From Vulcanimicrobiota bacterium (GTDB lineage: Bacteria; Vulcanimicrobiota; Xenobia; Xenobiales; JADMJV01): a stretch of 64,000 nt of DNA. How positions within the stretch are numbered: the first letter of the stretch is position 1; the number at the start of each line of letters is the position of its first letter. The DNA lies in NCBI GenBank assembly GCA_050250895.1, contig JBFWNU010000007.1:192001-256000 (forward strand). Direction: 5' to 3'. Of this stretch, positions 22,825 to 31,065 are shown piece after piece. The notes under the pieces were generated by a model. The model worked only from the letters and a program-made list of their open reading frames with translations, had not been told where the DNA came from and ran no database searches. The position numbers were made by a program, and so were the translations under genes.

Positions 22825-23760
22825 TCAGCGATCAGCGGCTTCCCCATGCGGCGCCCACCCAGCCGGGGCCACCTCGATGGGATCGCCGGCCTCACGCTCG
22901 CTGCCGGCCCCCAGGACCGACAGGGCCACCAGGGCCAGCCCGACGACCTGGCCGTTGGCCAATCGTTCGCCCAAGAAAAGATACGCGCCGATGGAGGTGG
23001 TGGCTACCGTGGCCAGGTTGAGCACGCTGCCGCGGGCGGCGGTGTTGAGTTTGTAGCCCTCGGTCATCAGGATCTGGGCGATGCAGCCAAAGAGGCCGGC
23101 CAGGGCCAGTAACGGCCAGGCCGCATCAGGGATGCTGGCCAGGCCCCAGGGGGCCGAGCCCAGCGTGGTGACCAGCGAGAACGAGAAGACGATGACGGAG
23201 GTCGAGACCTGACCGCTCAGTCCTCGCACGGCCACATAAGCTGCTCCCGCGCAGAGACCGGCCAACAAACCGGCCACCACGCCGAGCGGGTCAAGAGCTA
23301 CGGGAGCCACGCCGCTGACCAATCCGACTCCGGCGAACCCGCACACAAACGAAGCGAAAAGGCGCCAGCTTCCACCTTCGCCGAGAAAGAGCCAGGCCAG
23401 CAGAGCCGCCCAGATAGGGGAGGTATAGGTCAAGATCACGGCCACGGACAGATCCACCCGGTCGATGGCCAGGAAGTAGAGCACCATAGCCGACCCTCCC
23501 AGCAATCCGCGCAGACCCAGCGTGGTCAGGCGGGGTCGAATGCTGGGCCAATCGCGGCGCAACTCGGGCACCACCCAGGGCAACAGGGCCAGGGCCGGAA
23601 TCAAGCTGCGCCAGAAGACCACCTGACCCAGTTGCACTCCTGGCATTCCCGAGGCTCGCTTGATGAAAAGGGCCATCGTCCCGAAGAAGAACGACGACCA
23701 CAGCAGGGCTGCGCTGGGGTGTGTCAGCAAAGGACTTTTCTTTAGTGGGGGGAACTGCAC
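22825..23760 (-). CDS. EamA/DMT-family transporter (start uncertain)
   Basis: About 10 TM helices with the duplicated EamA signature (YTSPIWAALLAWLFLGE ... AYLFLGE). Confidence 0.88.
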   Translation of the reverse strand: MQFPPLKKSPLLTHPSAALLWSSFFFGTMALFIKRASGMPGVQLGQVVFWRSLIPALALLPWVVPELRRDWPSIRPRLTTLGLRGLLGGSAMVLYFLAIDRVDLSVAVILTYTSPIWAALLAWLFLGEGGSWRLFASFVCGFAGVGLVSGVAPVALDPLGVVAGLLAGLCAGAAYVAVRGLSGQVSTSVIVFSFSLVTTLGSAPWGLASIPDAAWPLLALAGLFGCIAQILMTEGYKLNTAARGSVLNLATVATTSIGAYLFLGERLANGQVVGLALVALSVLGAGSEREAGDPIEVAPAGWAPHGEAADR

Positions 23761-23792
23761 AGCAACTTTTTTATCCAGACAAGGCACTCTCG

Positions 23793-25841
23793 ATGCGGCT
23801 ATTACTTGCTCTCTTCATTTTCGGCGTGGCAGCTTTCTTCTTCTTGAAGAAGGCCCATAAGCTCTACCAATACCTGAAGGCGGCCAAACCCGAGGATCGA
23901 TTCGACAATCCGGGTGAGCGACTCAAGGATGTGCTGGTCTATGCCATCGGTCAAAAGCGACTGCTCAATCGCAAATACGGCGGCCTCTTGCACGTGATGA
24001 TCTTCTGGGGATTCTGCGTTCTCTCCATTGCCAATTTTACCCTGATCGTTCGCGGCTTTGCCGGGCCGGATTTCAATCTGCCCCTGCTGGGCGTCCATGA
24101 GCCGCTGGGTGGCATCTATAACTTCATCAAAGAGATTTTCATCTGTCTGGTGATTTTGGGCGTGTGCATGGCCTTCTTTCGCCGTTTGTTGCTGCAGCCG
24201 GCTTTCCCCGAGCCGTCCATGGACGCCCTGTTCATCCTGTCGATGATCTTTAGTCTGATGGTGGTCGAACTCGTCTGGGGTGGCTGCGAGGTGGCCAAGA
24301 TCCTGGCCGAGAACGTCGGAACCGAAAGCACCATGCGGTACGCGCCGGTGACGACTTTCCTGGGGGCCAGTCTGTACAACGGCCTGGGGCCGGGCAATCC
24401 GCGTCTGGACGGGCTGCAAGAGGTGGCCTGGTGGATCAACTACGCCCTGGTGTTGGGCTTTGGCGCGTATCTGCCTTACTCAAAGCATCTTCACGTCATC
24501 ACTGGCATTCCCAACGTCTACTTCCAGAAGAAGCGTCCTTACGGCGAGCTGCGCAAGCTCGACTTCTCGGACGAGGCGGCCGAGGACTACGGCGCCTCGA
24601 CCCTCAAGGACTTCACCTGGAAGAACTTCTTCGACTGGTATTCGTGCACGGAATGCGGCCGCTGTACCTCGGTCTGTCCGGCCTATGCCAGCGGTAAGCC
24701 GCTGCATCCCAAGAAAATCTCTGAAATGCTGCGGGAAGAACTGGTCGACCATGGGGGCGGTAACCTCTTGGTCAAGTTGGCTGAAAAGACGGCCAGCGAG
24801 AACGGTCAGGCCGAGGGTGAGGAGCCCGAGTTTCGGCACCTGCAAGATAACCTGTCAGCAGTGTCTGAAGAGGCGCTCTTTGCCTGCACCACCTGTCGCG
24901 CCTGCGAGGATGCCTGTCCGGTTTTCATCGAGTATGTCCAAGAGATCGTCGACATGCGACGCTATCTGGTGCAGGCCGAGAATCGGTTTCCTGAAGAGGT
25001 GGCCCGCGCTTTCAAGAACATGGAGAACAACTCCAACCCCTGGGGGATCGGCTTTGCCACCCGAGCCGACTGGGCTCAAGAGTTGGGCGTCAAGGTCATG
25101 GCCGAAGATCCGGGCCCGATCGATGTCCTCTATTGGGTAGGGTGTGCCGGCTCCTTTGACGAGCGCAACAAGAAGGTGTCCGAGGCGATGGTCAAGATCA
25201 TGACCGCCGCCGGGGTCAAGTTCGCCATCCTGGGCCAGGAGGAGGGTTGCACCGGCGACCCGGCTCGCCGGATCGGTAACGAGTATCTCTATCAGATGTT
25301 GGCCGAGCAGAACGTGACCGCCATGAACGGCTACGGTGTCAAAAAGGTGGTGACCACCTGTCCCCATTGCTTCAACACCATCAAGAACGAGTACCCGCAG
25401 TTCGGGGGCGATTATGAGGTGCTTCACCATTCGGAGTTCATCGCTCAGTTACTCACCAAAGGCACCATCAAGGTCAAGAAGCAGGATAGTCTTGACGTTA
25501 CCTACCACGATTCTTGCTATCTCGGGCGCTACAACGAGATCTACGACGAGCCTCGCAAGGCCCTCGAAGCGGTTGGTTTCAAGCTGCAAGAGATGGAACT
25601 CTCGCGCAACCGCGGCCGTTGCTGCGGAGCGGGCGGCGGTCGCATGTGGATGGAAGAGCACGGGACCAAAGTCAACGACATGCGCCTGGATGACGCTCTG
25701 ACCGTCAATCCCAAGATGATCGCCTCGGCGTGTCCGTTCTGTTTGACCATGCTCAGCGATGCCGTCAGCAGCAAGGACATGACCGACCAGTTGGAGACCC
25801 GCGACATCGCCGAAGTTGTGGCCGACGCCCTGGTTTCTTGA
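23793..25841 (+). CDS. Membrane-bound Fe-S oxidoreductase (FadF/HdrD-like: TM domain, 2x4Fe-4S, 2 CCG domains)
   Basis: CTECGRC..VCP, CTTCRAC..ACP, GC.GD/TCPHC, YHDSCYLGR..CCGAGGG..ACPFC and a NarI-like TM N-terminus. Confidence 0.9.
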   Translation: MRLLLALFIFGVAAFFFLKKAHKLYQYLKAAKPEDRFDNPGERLKDVLVYAIGQKRLLNRKYGGLLHVMIFWGFCVLSIANFTLIVRGFAGPDFNLPLLGVHEPLGGIYNFIKEIFICLVILGVCMAFFRRLLLQPAFPEPSMDALFILSMIFSLMVVELVWGGCEVAKILAENVGTESTMRYAPVTTFLGASLYNGLGPGNPRLDGLQEVAWWINYALVLGFGAYLPYSKHLHVITGIPNVYFQKKRPYGELRKLDFSDEAAEDYGASTLKDFTWKNFFDWYSCTECGRCTSVCPAYASGKPLHPKKISEMLREELVDHGGGNLLVKLAEKTASENGQAEGEEPEFRHLQDNLSAVSEEALFACTTCRACEDACPVFIEYVQEIVDMRRYLVQAENRFPEEVARAFKNMENNSNPWGIGFATRADWAQELGVKVMAEDPGPIDVLYWVGCAGSFDERNKKVSEAMVKIMTAAGVKFAILGQEEGCTGDPARRIGNEYLYQMLAEQNVTAMNGYGVKKVVTTCPHCFNTIKNEYPQFGGDYEVLHHSEFIAQLLTKGTIKVKKQDSLDVTYHDSCYLGRYNEIYDEPRKALEAVGFKLQEMELSRNRGRCCGAGGGRMWMEEHGTKVNDMRLDDALTVNPKMIASACPFCLTMLSDAVSSKDMTDQLETRDIAEVVADALVS

Positions 25842-26122
25842 GAATTTCTCTCGAAACTTTCCGCCCCGCGTGAGCTAGTTTCACGCTGATCTCGAGTGCT
25901 GGTAAGCCTTTGCGCACAAGGCTCGAACACACTTTTGGGGGGCGGAGTCGAGGTTTCGGCCGGTTCCCCTGCTGGTATAAGTTACCAGATCGGATGACCC
26001 GAAGGGATAGTGCTGTTGAGCGCAGAATTTGGGTTGCCCGACGCGGGGGGGATTGCGACCGACCAACGGTCTCACAAATATTCGACGGTGTGATTCACCT
26101 TCACACATAGAGCGAGGAGTGC

Positions 26123-28891
26123 TTGGTGACTAGCAAGAACGGCAAAACGACAAAGAAAAAGCTTTTTTTGATCGATGGAAATGGTCTGGCCTACCGAGCG
26201 TTTTACGCGGTTTCGCCCATGCAGACATCTTCGGGTATACCGGTGAACGCTGTGGCCGGCTTCGTCGACATGGTGCTTCGCCTTTTGAAGACCGAAAAGC
26301 CCACCCACGTGGCCGTAGCCTTCGACAAAGGGATCCCTACCGAGCGGCTTGACGCCTATCAGGACTACAACGCCCAGCGCGTCGACATGCCTGAAGATCT
26401 GGCCGTGCAATTGCCGATCATTGAAGACTTCGTGCGCGCCCTGGGCGTGCCGGTGTTCAGGGTGCATGGTCACGAAGCCGACGATTGTCTGGGAACGCTC
26501 GCCCACCGGGCCGCCAAGGAAGACTTCGAGGTCTTGATCCTCTCGGGTGACCTCGGCTTGCTGCAACTGGTCGGTCCCAACACCCGGGTGTTGACCACCC
26601 GGCGAGGCATCTCGGACATGGTCATCTATGACGAGAAGTCGGTCAAGAAGCGCTTCAATCTCAAGCCCCAACAGTTGGCCGACCTGCGCGCGCTGGCCGG
26701 TGATTCCTCGGACAACATCACGGGCGTGCCCGGCATCGGCGAGGTTACCGCCAAGAAGCTCCTGTCGCAGCACGGCAGCCTCGAAGACTTGCTTCGGTCC
26801 CTGCATCAGCTACCGGCCAAATGGCGCAATCCTCTGTCCGAGAACAAGGCTCAGGCTCTCGAGTTCAAAGCCCGTGCCTCGATCCGCACTGACCTCGAGC
26901 TGGATATCGATTGGGACAAGTGCCTCTACAGCGGCGTTCCCGTCGAACGTGTGGGCGAGATCTATCAGCGGATGGAGCTCGACAAAGTCCTCGAAGCTTT
27001 GCCCAAGGCCGGCGAACCTGGGGTCGCTGCCGAAGAGAAGCCCGATACGGTCTATTTAGTGACCGGCAAGAAGGCTCGCACCGAGTTGGCCTCTTTGGCG
27101 AAGTCCAAGGCGCCCCTCTCGATCCTCTTCCTGGGGGCCGGCAAGGAGATGGTCGGCCTGGCGGTAGCCGAAGGCGACGCCAAGGCCGTGATCGTGCCGA
27201 TCGGGAAGGGCGCCAAAGCCGTGCCGCTGACCGAAGCCTTCAAGATTCTCCAGCCTGCTCTGGAAGACCCCAAGCGTCGCAAGAACGTCCACAATCTGCG
27301 TTCGTTCCTGATGCTCGAGGTTTCTCGGGGCCTGGATCCGGGTCGCCACTTCTTCGATGTGGGCGTGGCTTCGCATCTGCTCGACTCGCGCGAGGGTAAT
27401 CCCTGGCTCGATGAGGTGGCTCGTCGCTACGGTCTTGATATTCCCGGCGAAGGCGAGTTGCTGGGCCACGGCAGCGGCTATCGCAAGCTCTCTGAAGTGC
27501 CCCTCGAAGAGCTGTCCGATTGGGCGGGACGGCGTGTGCTGGGTCTGGCTCGGCTGGCCCAGCGCCTCGAGGCTCACCTGGAAGAGAACGATCTGGCCGC
27601 TCAGTATTACACGGTCGAGTTGCCGACGGTAGTCGTCTTCTCCAAGCTCGAGCGCGACGGCGTGCCCCTCGACAAGAAGGGGCTCTCGGCGCTGGGTGAG
27701 GCCATCGATTCCCAACTGGCCGAACTCAAGACTCGCATCTATGAGGCCGCCGGAGGCAATTTCGACTTCGACGACCCTAAAGAGCTGGCCGAGGTGTTGT
27801 TCGATCGCATGGCCCTGGCTGTTTCGGCCCGTCCTAAAAATGGTGCCCTGATCGGTAATGACATCTTGACGCAGATCGCCGACCAAAACCCGATCGGGCT
27901 GATGATTCGCGACCACCGCGAGTTGACCTCACTGCGGGCTTCGTTCCAGCTGGCCCTGACTCGCTTCGAGACGCCTCGCCACGGTTGGTTCCAGCGGAGC
28001 GCCCAGTTCCCGGTCACCAACTCCGAGCGGCTCTTGTGGATGGGTCCGGCTGCCGTAGGCGGGGCGGTTGCCACCTTCAACCGGTTGCTCTCCGAGGTCG
28101 AGGGGTTGCCCAATGTCGAATTGCGTAAGCAGTTGTCATCGATGTTGCTAAAGTGCCTCAAGACCTCCAAGCGCAACCATATGTTGCTGGGCTTTGGTTA
28201 TGACCAGTTTCAGCTACGCTTGGCCGCCCATCTTTCCGGCGAGAGCAGCCTGATCGGTGGCTTCGTCAAGCACGATGATGTCGAGGCGATGCTGGCCAGT
28301 CAGGTTTCCGGCGGCGAACTGCTCAACGGAGACCGTCAGGACCTGGTCGATTCGTTGCTGGGCTCGATTGGTGCCCACCGTCTGGCCCGTCGGACCGGAA
28401 TGAGCCCGGAAGATGCCAGTGCGGCAATTCAGACCTACCTGGCCCGCTTCTATGAGAACTATAAGGGGATGGAAGCGTATTTTCAGGGAGAGCTCAACAA
28501 GGTGAAAAGCCGCGGCTGGGTCTCGAGTATCACCGGACGGCGGCGTAATCTGCCCGAGATGTCGAGCCGCAACTCCGACATTCGCGACACGGCCGAGCGC
28601 ATCGCTCGCAACGCCGCCATTCAGTCCTCGGCGGCCGATATTCTCAAGAAGGTACTGGTCGAAATCGATCGCGAGCTGCAAACCGAAAAGCTAAACGCCT
28701 CGATGGTGATGCAATTGCGGGACTTCGTGATTCTCGAGGTCGCCAAGGAGGATGTCGAGGACGTGGCCGACCGGGTGGAACGCCTGATGCATAAAGCTTT
28801 CGGGCTAGATGTGCCCCTGCAGATCACGATTTGTCAGGGCAAGGCCTGGAGTGACTGCAAGGAACTCAAGCGCGCCGCCCTTCGCCGCTAG
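26123..28891 (+). CDS. polA: DNA polymerase I-like protein: 5'-3' nuclease largely intact, polymerase motifs degenerate
   Basis: IDGNGLAYRAF, AFD, EADD and GDSSDNITGVPGIG are present. The C-terminal family A scaffold is kept (GRRR, AERIARNAAIQSSAADILK), but motif A reads FGYDQFQLR and motif C reads QLRDF. Confidence 0.85.
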   Translation: MVTSKNGKTTKKKLFLIDGNGLAYRAFYAVSPMQTSSGIPVNAVAGFVDMVLRLLKTEKPTHVAVAFDKGIPTERLDAYQDYNAQRVDMPEDLAVQLPIIEDFVRALGVPVFRVHGHEADDCLGTLAHRAAKEDFEVLILSGDLGLLQLVGPNTRVLTTRRGISDMVIYDEKSVKKRFNLKPQQLADLRALAGDSSDNITGVPGIGEVTAKKLLSQHGSLEDLLRSLHQLPAKWRNPLSENKAQALEFKARASIRTDLELDIDWDKCLYSGVPVERVGEIYQRMELDKVLEALPKAGEPGVAAEEKPDTVYLVTGKKARTELASLAKSKAPLSILFLGAGKEMVGLAVAEGDAKAVIVPIGKGAKAVPLTEAFKILQPALEDPKRRKNVHNLRSFLMLEVSRGLDPGRHFFDVGVASHLLDSREGNPWLDEVARRYGLDIPGEGELLGHGSGYRKLSEVPLEELSDWAGRRVLGLARLAQRLEAHLEENDLAAQYYTVELPTVVVFSKLERDGVPLDKKGLSALGEAIDSQLAELKTRIYEAAGGNFDFDDPKELAEVLFDRMALAVSARPKNGALIGNDILTQIADQNPIGLMIRDHRELTSLRASFQLALTRFETPRHGWFQRSAQFPVTNSERLLWMGPAAVGGAVATFNRLLSEVEGLPNVELRKQLSSMLLKCLKTSKRNHMLLGFGYDQFQLRLAAHLSGESSLIGGFVKHDDVEAMLASQVSGGELLNGDRQDLVDSLLGSIGAHRLARRTGMSPEDASAAIQTYLARFYENYKGMEAYFQGELNKVKSRGWVSSITGRRRNLPEMSSRNSDIRDTAERIARNAAIQSSAADILKKVLVEIDRELQTEKLNASMVMQLRDFVILEVAKEDVEDVADRVERLMHKAFGLDVPLQITICQGKAWSDCKELKRAALRR

Positions 28892-29041: not shown

Positions 29042-30463
29042 ATGACCAACGCACAACCGACTGAGACGACGTCTTCGGAAACGACGCCTACTGGCGAGAA
29101 TGCCGCCACACCCAAGGCCGAGGAGTCGATGGAGTCTTTAATGGCCAGCCACGAGGCCTATGAGGATTCGTTCAAACAACTCAAGCGGGGCGAGGTCCTC
29201 ACCGGTCGTGTCGTACAAATCAATGAAGACAGCGTGATGGTTGACGTTGGTTACAAGACGGAAGGGATCGTGCCCCTGAATCAGCTGTCTCACCAGCGTG
29301 ACGTGAATCCCCATGAGGTGGTCAGCGTAGGTGACGAGATCACCGTAGTGGTCAAGAAGATCAACGACACCGAGGGCACGGTGGTGCTCTCTAAGAAGCA
29401 GGCTGACCTCGAGTCAGCCTGGCTGCGGGTCAACGACGCTTTCGAGAACGGAGAGGTCATCACGGCGACCTGCACCGAGCAGGTCAAAGGCGGCCTGATT
29501 GTCGACCTGGGACTGCGCGGCTTCGTGCCCGCCTCGCACGTCGACACTCGCCCGGTTCACGACCTGTCTGACTATGTGGGCGAACTGCTCCACCTCAAGG
29601 TGCTCGAGATCGATCGCGGCCGGCGTAAAATCGTTCTTTCGCGCAAGAAAGCTCTGGAAGAAGAGCGTAGCAAGATGAAAGAGCAGACCATGGCCGAACT
29701 CGAAGAGGGCCAGATCGTCAGTGGGCACGTGGCTCGCTTGACCAACTTCGGTGCCTTCATCAATCTCGGCGGGGTTGACGGGCTGGTTCACATCTCCGAG
29801 TTGTCGTGGAAGCGCATCAAGCACCCCAACGAAGTGGTTCGCGTGGGCGAGGCAGTCGAAGTGCGAGTGCTCAGTGTCGACCGCAGCCGCGAACGCATCT
29901 CCTTGTCGCTCAAGCAGGCCCGCCCTGACCCCTGGATGACCATGTCCGAGTCGCTGCGGGTCGGCCAGGTTCTCGATGGCCGCGTAACCAAGCTGGCCAA
30001 GAACTATGCCTTCGTCGAGATTGCCGAGGGAGTGGAAGGGCTGGTGCCTCTCAACGAACTTTCTGACTACAAAGTGGTCAAGCCGTCCGAGGTGCTCAAG
30101 CCCGACCAGCCGGTCAAGGTCAAAGTGATCGACGTCAAGCCCGACCAGCGTCGCATTACCCTGTCGATTCGCCAGGCTAGCGGCGGCAGCGGCGGGCCGG
30201 TCCCGGCGTCGGCTTCCTCCGGCTCTGGCGGTGGGTTCACCATCGGCGACCGGCTTCCGGCCAACCTTAAAGCCATGCTCGGCGTGGAAGGTGAGGCTAA
30301 TCAACAGCCCGAGGCCAAGCCTGAGAAGGCTGAGAAGCCTGAAAAGGCTGAGAAGCCTGAAAAGGCCGCCGAGCCGGCCGAGACCCCCGAAGCCTCAGAG
30401 GCCCCAGAAGCCCCGGCCGAAGCTCCGGTCGAGGCAGAGACGAACCAGGAAGTTAGCAACTGA
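29042..30463 (+). CDS. rpsA: 30S ribosomal protein S1 (4 S1 domains, acidic/KPEKAE low-complexity tail)
   Basis: VDVGYKTEG, VKGGLIVDLGLRGFVPAS, FGAFINLGGVDGLVHISELSW and EGVEGLV. RBS AGGAG. Confidence 0.95.
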   Translation: MTNAQPTETTSSETTPTGENAATPKAEESMESLMASHEAYEDSFKQLKRGEVLTGRVVQINEDSVMVDVGYKTEGIVPLNQLSHQRDVNPHEVVSVGDEITVVVKKINDTEGTVVLSKKQADLESAWLRVNDAFENGEVITATCTEQVKGGLIVDLGLRGFVPASHVDTRPVHDLSDYVGELLHLKVLEIDRGRRKIVLSRKKALEEERSKMKEQTMAELEEGQIVSGHVARLTNFGAFINLGGVDGLVHISELSWKRIKHPNEVVRVGEAVEVRVLSVDRSRERISLSLKQARPDPWMTMSESLRVGQVLDGRVTKLAKNYAFVEIAEGVEGLVPLNELSDYKVVKPSEVLKPDQPVKVKVIDVKPDQRRITLSIRQASGGSGGPVPASASSGSGGGFTIGDRLPANLKAMLGVEGEANQQPEAKPEKAEKPEKAEKPEKAAEPAETPEASEAPEAPAEAPVEAETNQEVSN

Positions 30464-31065
30464 GTCTGGTCCTCGGGCTGACGGGCGGGATCGCGGCGGG
30501 CAAGAGCACGGTCGCGGAGATGCTCGCGGACCTCGGAGCCACCGTCATTGATGCCGATCAGGTGAGCCGCAGGCTGATGCAGCCGGGTTCGCCTGTTTTG
30601 CTTTCCCTGGCCGACGCCTTCGGCCCCGAGACCCTCGATGCGCAAGGCGAACTCAACCGCGCCTGGCTGGGCGAGCGAGTGTTTGGCGACGAAGTTGCCC
30701 TGGCGCGCCTGAACGCCCTGACGCACCCGCCGATCTGGCGGGCCATTAGTGAAGACATCGAGGCTCTGCGCGGGCGTGTGCCGGTCATCGTGTTGATGGC
30801 TCCACTGCTCTACGAGCATCAAGCCGAAGACCGCGTGGACGAGGTCTGGGTGATCGACCTCTCGGCCGAGTCCCAGCTTCAGCGCCTTCAACAACGGAAC
30901 GGCCTCAGTCTCGAGGCCGCTCGCGCCCGGGTGGCCGCCCAGATGCCCATCGCAGAGAAGGCTCGCCGGGCCGATGTGGTCATCGACAATTCCCGCTCAC
31001 TGGAGGCAACCCGCCAACAGGTCGAGAACTGTTGGAATAGCCGGATTCTACCCCGCCTTTCCTGA
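30460..31065 (+). CDS. coaE: Dephospho-CoA kinase (probable CTG start overlapping the rpsA stop)
   Basis: The P-loop GLTGGIAAGKSTV lies upstream of the first ATG (30520). IDAD, LNALTHP and ADVVIDNS are present. Confidence 0.92.
   Translation: MSLVLGLTGGIAAGKSTVAEMLADLGATVIDADQVSRRLMQPGSPVLLSLADAFGPETLDAQGELNRAWLGERVFGDEVALARLNALTHPPIWRAISEDIEALRGRVPVIVLMAPLLYEHQAEDRVDEVWVIDLSAESQLQRLQQRNGLSLEAARARVAAQMPIAEKARRADVVIDNSRSLEATRQQVENCWNSRILPRLS

Follow-up and report, generated by a model that had tools for sequence, protein, structure and literature searches.

Within a 64,000-nucleotide stretch of DNA from a Vulcanimicrobiota bacterium (positions 192,001–256,000 of contig JBFWNU010000007.1, GenBank assembly GCA_050250895.1; the whole stretch is referred to here as the window), one gene encodes an orthologue of DNA polymerase I (Pol I) in which the polymerase site is degenerate, and which has been maintained under strong purifying selection. 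Such orthologues are present in all 40 genomes examined of the order to which the source organism belongs. On balance, we favour the idea that the protein is a non-polymerising, junction-binding Pol I body that carries a remodelled flap endonuclease (FEN) resembling ExoIX of Escherichia coli, DNA synthesis being left to an acquired Pol I and to a family-B DNA polymerase (PolB). In what follows, f and g denote families and genera, and G000 is the source genome (9.5 Mb), with the window on its contig C7.

The polymerase-like domain

The open reading frame (ORF) is intact, as a first-pass annotation of the window had stated, and remains open for 922 codons from a TTG start. A GGAG sequence lies 4–8 nucleotides 5' of this start, and an alternative GTG start at 26126 gives the 921-amino-acid form recorded as protein P0002. 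All three of the expected Pfam domains were matched by the 922-residue product: 5_3_exonuc_N (179 bits), 5_3_exonuc (88 bits) and DNA_pol_A (PF00476), the last of these exceeding its gathering threshold (218.9 bits vs. 34.3), with the canonical Pol I copy of the same genome scoring 509 bits against the same profile. Taken with the predicted fold, these matches give the architecture of a Pol I, with FEN, 3'-5' exonuclease-like and polymerase domains. The cut-offs of the NCBIfam polA equivalogs were missed (608.3 vs. 720 bits for TIGR00593, and 565.6 vs. 600 for NF004397), as was that of the Xni model NF007017 (161.3 vs. 261 bits). The relevant features of the C-terminal part are as follows.

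26123..28891, + strand: whole ORF, Pol I orthologue with a degenerate polymerase site (ORF reading, Pfam)
27020..27667, + strand: vestigial 3'-5' exonuclease-like domain, residues ~300–515 (weak PF22619 match)
27680..28852, + strand: polymerase-like domain (thumb, palm, fingers), residues 520–910 (PF00476, 219 bits; AlphaFold2; Foldseek)
28022..28129, + strand: SERLLWMGP...LPNVELRK replacing TGRLSS..PNLQNIPVR, with an 18-residue clade-specific insertion (MAFFT alignment)
28184..28243, + strand: motif A remnant LLGFGYDQFQLRLAAHLSGE, with Gly692 for the catalytic Asp and Gln697 for the steric-gate Glu (alignments)
28331..28375, + strand: motif B (O-helix) remnant DRQDLVDSLLGSIGA, with Lys, Phe and Tyr lost and a 3-residue deletion (phmmer, MAFFT)
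28709..28738, + strand: motif C remnant MQLRDFVILE, with Asp867 kept, His changed to Arg and Glu to Phe (alignments)

Motifs were called from two alignments, one made to Taq Pol I with phmmer and the other to 49 related genes with MAFFT. In both, motif A (LDYSQIELR in active enzymes) reads FGYDQFQLR, so that of the two catalytic Asp residues only that of motif C is present, and the O-helix residues that bind the incoming deoxynucleoside triphosphate (dNTP) are missing; only the motif B Arg is ambiguous, its position being occupied by Asn in the phmmer alignment and by Arg in that made with MAFFT. The QVHDE of motif C has become QLRDF. The first-pass annotation had read motifs A, B and C in this way, had seen that the TGRLSS..PNLQNIP stretch was replaced, and had listed GRRR, AERxARNxxIQxSAAD and a C-terminal G..W as surviving structural motifs, and on all of these points the alignments bear it out. 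In Pol1 of Mycobacterium smegmatis, the equivalent positions are reported to be Asp684 and Asp861 (with Glu862), which bind metal, and Arg733, Lys737 and Tyr741, which contact the dNTP (PMC7102940).

We compared 71 degenerate homologues, spanning 35–100% identity, with 130 Pol I sequences chosen for possession of the canonical triad (motif A Asp, steric-gate Glu and motif C Asp). The motif A position, which is Asp in 130/130 of the canonical sequences (themselves selected on that residue), is occupied in the degenerate set by Ser (25), Arg (13), Gly (12), Glu (9), Thr (3) or Asn (3), to give only the residues itemised, and the motif C Asp is retained in 47 of the 71. The motif C His is invariant in all 130 of the canonical-triad enzymes, so its loss from the degenerate protein goes beyond chance. 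Within the order, the MAFFT alignment reveals no lineage in which both catalytic Asp residues are kept: families f1 and f2 have retained that of motif C and lost that of motif A, in genera g8 and g9 the motif A residue is Glu and that of motif C is Asn, and genera g5–g7 have neither Asp. Thus, the catalytic positions vary freely across the degenerate clade.

Other parts of the domain are well conserved. The degenerate group has its own conserved motifs, RPKNG and WMGP..VGGAVATFNRLL, and both of the Arg residues in the stretch corresponding to TGRLSS..PNLQNIPVR are kept in at least 90% of its members. The N..Q pair of AER..N..Q, which we take to be a contact with the DNA minor groove in canonical Pol I, is kept in families f1 and f2. 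The Arg of TGR, a DNA contact in canonical enzymes, is also kept, as is an Arg that aligns with (and, by that alignment, would correspond to) Arg660 of M. smegmatis Pol1, a residue reported to contact the phosphates at the primer terminus (PMC7102940).

An AlphaFold2 model built from an 83-sequence alignment was of high confidence (mean predicted local distance difference test, pLDDT, 88.3; predicted template modelling score, pTM, 0.88), and Foldseek matched it to Taq Pol I, to full-length M. smegmatis Pol1 and to the Bst large fragment (target-normalised TM 0.80). The model thus indicates that the full Pol I fold is retained despite the loss of the site. In the 3'-5' exonuclease-like domain, alignment with the Klenow fragment gives Phe for the Exo II Asp, Trp for the Exo III Tyr and Arg for the Exo III Asp, so that the Exo II and Exo III residues are lacking. 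Loss of 3'-5' exonuclease residues is reported to be common among Pol I orthologues (PMC12926913).

Orthology and evolutionary history

By its place in the genome, the degenerate gene is the polA orthologue of this order of the Eremiobacterota (Vulcanimicrobiota), class 'Ca. Xenobia'. The polA-rpsA-coaE locus recognised at first pass proved to be conserved phylum-wide: polA is followed by rpsA (and by coaE where the locus extends that far) in the case of the canonical Pol I of f4, f7, f13 and f19, the Pol I of f11 and the order's own degenerate copies. The degenerate copies of the order form a single clade (Shimodaira–Hasegawa-like approximate likelihood ratio test, SH-aLRT, 100), with a branching pattern that mirrors family and genus. 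(A 62% complete genome, G041, has a low-scoring, partial polA and was left outside the detailed comparison.)

A second, high-scoring polA copy (460–509 bits) is present in 15/16 genomes of family f1 (the exception, G014, is 78% complete), and in 0/5 of f2 and 0/19 of f3. The degenerate gene was the sole family-A homologue found in the 24 f2 and f3 genomes, of which several are 95–98% complete. The f1 second copies fall into a separate clade (SH-aLRT 100), apart from the syntenic Pol I of the phylum, and rpsA was adjacent to none of the eight that were examined. The copy in G000, on contig C5, specifies an 874-amino-acid protein with DWSQIELR, RxxxKxxxFxxxYG and HDE all intact, which answers the question of whether the genome has a second polA with a DYSQIE-like motif. 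It is 55–60% identical to Pol I proteins of named Myxococcota (Enhygromyxa, Nannocystaceae, Sandaracinaceae) and of Acidobacteriota, and 36–40% identical to the syntenic Pol I of Eremiobacterota; to judge from these similarities, it was apparently gained horizontally. One f1 genome, G002, has on its contig C3 (L048) a third polA, of canonical type, that groups with the Pol I of family f15 (SH-aLRT 100); it may reflect another transfer event or else contamination, for which the genome has a listed value of 2%.

The simplest history would be that the polymerase site of the ancestral polA was lost ahead of the order's radiation, and that family f1 later gained an active Pol I by horizontal transfer. 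A similar situation may exist elsewhere in the phylum. In families f11, f17 and f18 there is one Pol I, which is syntenic, has partly degenerate motifs and lacks the insertion, and in the examples L055, L056, L057 and L058 (from G057, G046, G062 and G052) the Lys of the FEN helical arch, discussed below, is kept; in that of G046, motif A still has its Asp and motif B its Arg, Lys and Phe, with HD of motif C changed to RE. These proteins form their own clade in the unconstrained tree, and joining this to the order's clade was not rejected by the approximately unbiased (AU) test (log-likelihood, lnL, 25.75 higher; p-AU 0.767). Either a single inactivation or two may be compatible with this result, with long-branch attraction possible, and the Pol I of f11, f17 and f18 may be at an earlier point on the same path or may have degenerated independently.

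Maintenance by selection

Pairwise ratios of nonsynonymous to synonymous substitution (dN/dS, or omega) were estimated from codon alignments by the method of Nei and Gojobori. For the polymerase-like domain, omega was 0.033 in the pairs G016/G024 (dS 0.29) and G022/G020 (dS 0.66), 0.039 in G002/G010 (dS 0.90), and up to 0.165 in further unsaturated pairs; G000/G001 gave 0.145 with dS saturated. The canonical copy gave 0.033–0.131 in the same genome pairs. The polymerase-like domain is therefore under strong purifying selection comparable to that on the canonical copy, and neutral decay is contradicted. The FEN domain is the most constrained part of the protein (omega 0.012–0.078). Full-length degenerate orthologues have no internal stops, and the shorter matches (in G009, G011, G030, G031 and G036) sit in fragmented assemblies. 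Low omega in the polymerase domain, together with the presence of the gene throughout the order as one clade that follows taxonomy, supports the idea of a maintained pseudo-polymerase.

Other DNA polymerases in the genome, order and phylum

It had been argued at first pass that gap filling in such an organism would call for another enzyme, and besides the second Pol I, G000 does possess a further candidate with intact polymerase motifs (DxxSLYPS, KxxxNSxYG and DTDG).

G000 contig C1, L066:5050-7230, − strand: family-B DNA polymerase, 726 amino acids, closest to archaeal PolB structures (similarity, motifs)

Within the order, PolB is present in 33/40 genomes (5/5 in f2, 18/19 in f3, 2/2 in g1, 8/8 in g3 and 0/6 in g2), including 23 of the 24 f2 and f3 genomes that have only the degenerate Pol I. 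The PolB orthologues of f2, f3 and f11 show 34–54% mutual identity. Across the phylum, PolB was found in 48 of the 151 genomes sampled: in 27/28 of those with degenerate PolA only (f2, f3, f11, f17 and f18), and in 21/123 of those with canonical PolA (10/16 in f1, plus members of f5, f19 and f20; 0/71 in f15). The f20 matches are weak (25–30 bits), and the f20 count takes in the unpublished genome G127. The Exo I and Exo II motifs of PolB look degenerate in the order and are present in the f11 orthologue of G057.

Pol III alpha of the DnaE type is present in all 40 genomes of the order, and Y-family polymerases in 27/40 (0/10 in the small-genome genus g5). A search with PF14792 for PolX gave no match, nor did it do so in control genomes. 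At ~362800–365761 of contig C7 of G000, a 495-amino-acid frame with a weak Y-family (IMS) match adjoins a second DnaE-type gene (1051 amino acids), a pair that looks like an imuB-dnaE2 mutasome cassette and that recurs in several f1 genomes.

The 5' nuclease domain

The N-terminal domain keeps most of its canonical motifs, with two changes of potential importance.

26159..26932, + strand: 5' nuclease (FEN) domain, residues 13–270 (PF02739 and PF01367)
26366..26380, + strand: YNAQR, with the helical-arch Lys changed to Asn83 (alignment of order sequences)
26543..26557, + strand: SGDLG, with a Cat2/M2–M3 ligand Asp changed to Gly145 (alignments)

The Cat1 (M1) carboxylates are all present (D18, D68, E118, D120 and D143). 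Of the three Cat2 Asp residues (155, 201 and 204 in T5 FEN), the first is replaced by Gly145 and the others are present as D194 and D197. An f2 orthologue retains the full set of eight nuclease carboxylates, whereas an orthologue of genus g5 is the most degenerate. Asn83 occupies the position of T5 Lys83, an equivalence that we infer from the motif and from the identical spacing between D68 and residue 83. The Lys of YKxxR is replaced by Asn in 28/28 of the order sequences and in 68/71 of the degenerate homologues, compared with Lys in 128/130 of the canonical sequences. The first-pass annotation was right about DG, AFD, EADD, GDSSDN and SGDLG, but overlooked the change from YKxxR to YNAQR.

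Neither change need abolish activity. Flap cleavage by T5 FEN is reported to require only Cat1, and E. coli ExoIX, which has Gly at the equivalent of T5 Asp155 and lacks the Cat2 aspartates, still cleaves flaps; the arch Lys is described as conserved in all prokaryotic FENs, and its replacement by Ala greatly reduces activity, yet leaves an enzyme that is not dead (PMC3783174).

Proposed function and its alternatives

How might such a protein contribute to DNA metabolism? With its catalytic residues lost, two-metal polymerisation of the family-A kind would be impossible, and the Klenow-like body would survive as a module that binds nicks or primer–template junctions, a role suggested by its retention of the primer-terminus Arg contacts and of the N/Q pair. 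This module would position the N-terminal 5' nuclease, in which metal would still be bound at the intact Cat1 site; in view of the loss of the arch Lys and of one Cat2 Asp, this would probably be a flap endonuclease of the ExoIX kind with little exonuclease activity. Gaps would be filled in G000 by the acquired Pol I or by PolB, and in families lacking a canonical Pol I by PolB or Pol III. The first-pass annotation had offered a flap nuclease built on a dead polymerase scaffold as an example; to judge from the alignments this is plausible, but the case is weaker than was assumed there, because the nuclease site is changed as well.

Various considerations weigh against this combination of a junction-binding body and a working nuclease. 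Both the inactivity of the polymerase and every activity that we propose are deduced from sequence, and the motif C Asp, which f1 and f2 still have, may support some residual metal-dependent chemistry. In the nuclease, Asn stands at the arch position in spite of the general conservation of Lys there, and Gly145 replaces an Asp in the window's protein; all eight carboxylates are reported to be essential for the 5' exonuclease of Mycobacterium tuberculosis Pol1 (PMC7102940), and the D148N and D208N variants of mycobacterial FenA to be nuclease-dead (PMC5934675). Glu118 is kept in 56/71 of the degenerate homologues and lost in genus g2, and Asp197 is kept in 34/71 and lost in family f3. All of the genomes checked encode complete stand-alone FEN homologues, with two in G000 and further ones in g4, g5 and g8, so the nuclease of the degenerate Pol I may be redundant. 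In E. coli or Bacillus subtilis, simultaneous loss of the Pol I FEN domain and of the second FEN is reported to be synthetically lethal (PMC3783174, citing Fukushima 2007). As to PolB, it also occurs alongside canonical Pol I in f5, f19, f20 and genera g1 and g3 of f1, and its association with degenerate PolA is suggestive only, because the genomes share ancestry and amount to no more than two or three independent events. Finally, contigs from RNA libraries (three runs of one wastewater study) match only positions 26000–26603 of the window, at ~96–98% identity with 6–22 mismatches each (in run X4, 14/16 of the differences within the ORF are at third codon positions, by hand count), and the nine matching runs contain at most 0.10 of the sampled words; these contigs may stem from DNA in the libraries and so are no proof of transcription.

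The main alternative is that the protein is wholly non-catalytic, with polymerase and 5' nuclease both inactive, and serves as a sensor of nicks, gaps or flaps or as a scaffold. It would then recruit PolB, a solo FEN or ligase, or pass substrates to them, by analogy with inactive polymerase homologues elsewhere. The replacement of the arch Lys by Asn in nearly all of the degenerate homologues, the variable loss of Cat2/M2–M3 ligands (Asp is present at 145 in 46/71, and at 197 in the minority given above), the presence of Gln for Glu118 in 15/71, the essential nature reported for the equivalent carboxylates of mycobacterial Pol1 and FenA, the complete solo FENs and the purifying selection over the whole protein would all be consistent with this. 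On the other hand, six carboxylates (D18, D68, D120, D121, D143 and D194) are invariant in 71/71 degenerate homologues over the whole range of identity, which is hard to explain without metal binding, and the ExoIX and arch-Lys precedents cited above show how a site altered in these ways could still work. We therefore regard a protein without any catalytic activity as rather unlikely, and prefer the junction-binding body with an ExoIX-like nuclease.

It seems very improbable that the protein is still a DNA or RNA polymerase acting through non-canonical residues, such as Asp690 of YDQ with Asp867. The retention of the motif C Asp in f1 and f2, the preserved fold (AlphaFold2, Foldseek) and the strong purifying selection on the domain might be taken to favour this; but Asp690, the catalytic substitute considered at first pass, is unconserved, its place being taken by Ser within the genus and by Asn, Thr, Val or Ala in others, the O-helix is three residues shorter and no longer has the dNTP-holding Lys, Phe and Tyr, f3 orthologues also lack the motif C Asp, and the catalytic positions have been free to vary across the clade. 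That the gene is a relic in decay, on its way to being lost because the second polA has made it superfluous, can be dismissed with near certainty, for although G000 does have a canonical polA and the profile scores are reduced, the absence of internal stops, the low omega (which already contradicts decay), the status of the gene as the only PolA in the 24 genomes of f2 and f3, and the conservation of clade-specific motifs all speak against it.

A broader interpretation can be offered only tentatively, and we consider it more doubtful than not. Across the order, lagging-strand gap filling and repair synthesis might have shifted from Pol I to an archaeal-type PolB, with Pol I kept as a non-polymerising nick and flap factor and its dead Klenow-like body as the junction-recognition module, possibly in a deeper clade that includes f11, f17 and f18. 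If true, this would mean that a division of labour between PolB and FEN like that of archaea and eukaryotes had evolved inside the Bacteria.

Comparison with known systems

The degenerate protein resembles canonical Pol I (as of E. coli, Taq and M. smegmatis, the PolA1 group of PMC12926913) in its three-domain architecture and fold, in the rpsA-coaE-adjacent position of its gene (as in other Eremiobacterota), and in its Cat1 nuclease carboxylates, GRRR and AER..N..Q..AAD; the vestigial state of its 3'-5' exonuclease domain is shared with Taq Pol I and M. smegmatis Pol1. It differs in the loss of the motif A Asp, the steric-gate Glu, the O-helix Lys, Phe and Tyr and the motif C His and Glu, in the 18-residue insertion and the 3-residue deletion in the fingers, in the changes of the arch Lys to Asn and of one Cat2 Asp to Gly, and in falling below the NCBIfam equivalog cut-offs.

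With E. coli ExoIX (Xni), it has in common the Gly at the T5 Asp155 position and an intact Cat1 site. ExoIX, however, is a stand-alone protein of ~250 amino acids that lacks all three Cat2 Asp residues and keeps the arch Lys, whereas in the degenerate Pol I two of the three are present, the Lys is absent, and the nuclease domain is followed by a Klenow-like C-terminal body of ~650 residues.

Many Tenericutes and Verrucomicrobia are reported to have no Pol I and to have kept a stand-alone FEN (PMC12926913). Families f2 and f3 are like these bacteria in having no active family-A polymerase and, we predict, in retaining 5' nuclease function, but unlike them in that a polymerase body of ~600 residues has been conserved under purifying selection, rather than deleted.

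Parallels also exist in other polymerase families. In PolX1 proteins the polymerase site is reported to be inactivated and the PHP exonuclease conserved (PMC12926913); here too the polymerase site has been lost while the attached nuclease domain and the whole protein were retained, the difference being that PolX1 belongs to family X and has a PHP 3'-5' exonuclease, and the degenerate Pol I belongs to family A and has a FEN. Inactive polymerase homologues that act as scaffolds include ImuB, of the Y family (PMC12926913), and the F12 protein of poxviruses is an inactivated PolB homologue (PMC4304020); both have, like the protein considered here, a polymerase fold without catalytic residues, though they are of other families. 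Full-text literature searches and passages of two family-wide surveys (PMC12926913, PMC10201439) yielded no account of a Pol I orthologue whose polymerase site has been inactivated, though further supplements of the former may list active-site states; one of its supplements makes no mention of Eremiobacter, Vulcanimicrobium, 'PolA1-like' or 'inactive polymerase'.

Implications

Pol I is reported to be present in ~96% of bacterial species, and to be replaced, where missing, usually by a bare FEN (PMC12926913). The full-length Pol I of f2 and f3, apparently unable to use the family-A mechanism and with no other family-A polymerase in the cell, would amount to a natural separation-of-function allele. 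A degenerate Pol I can reveal those roles of the Pol I body that are independent of synthesis, such as junction recognition, positioning of the FEN and recruitment of partners. The identity of the enzyme that fills Okazaki gaps in such bacteria also becomes testable, with the near-universal PolB as the obvious candidate. In public records the degenerate proteins are labelled 'hypothetical protein', 'DNA polymerase' or 'DNA polymerase I', so that genome surveys based on Pfam counts would credit these organisms with an active Pol I.

Neighbouring genes

The genes that flank the degenerate polA in the window are as follows.

29042..30463, + strand: rpsA, with four S1 domains, the conserved downstream neighbour (Pfam, synteny)
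30520..31065, + strand: coaE, dephospho-CoA kinase (Pfam, synteny)
23721..25841, + strand: HdrD-like Fe-S protein (two CCG domains and 4Fe-4S motifs), the conserved upstream neighbour in f1 and f2 (Pfam, synteny)

When read from its first ATG, coaE matches the Pfam profile only from position 20; translation may begin further upstream, near the stop codon of rpsA. The HdrD-like upstream neighbour is 68–83% identical to its counterparts in other genomes.

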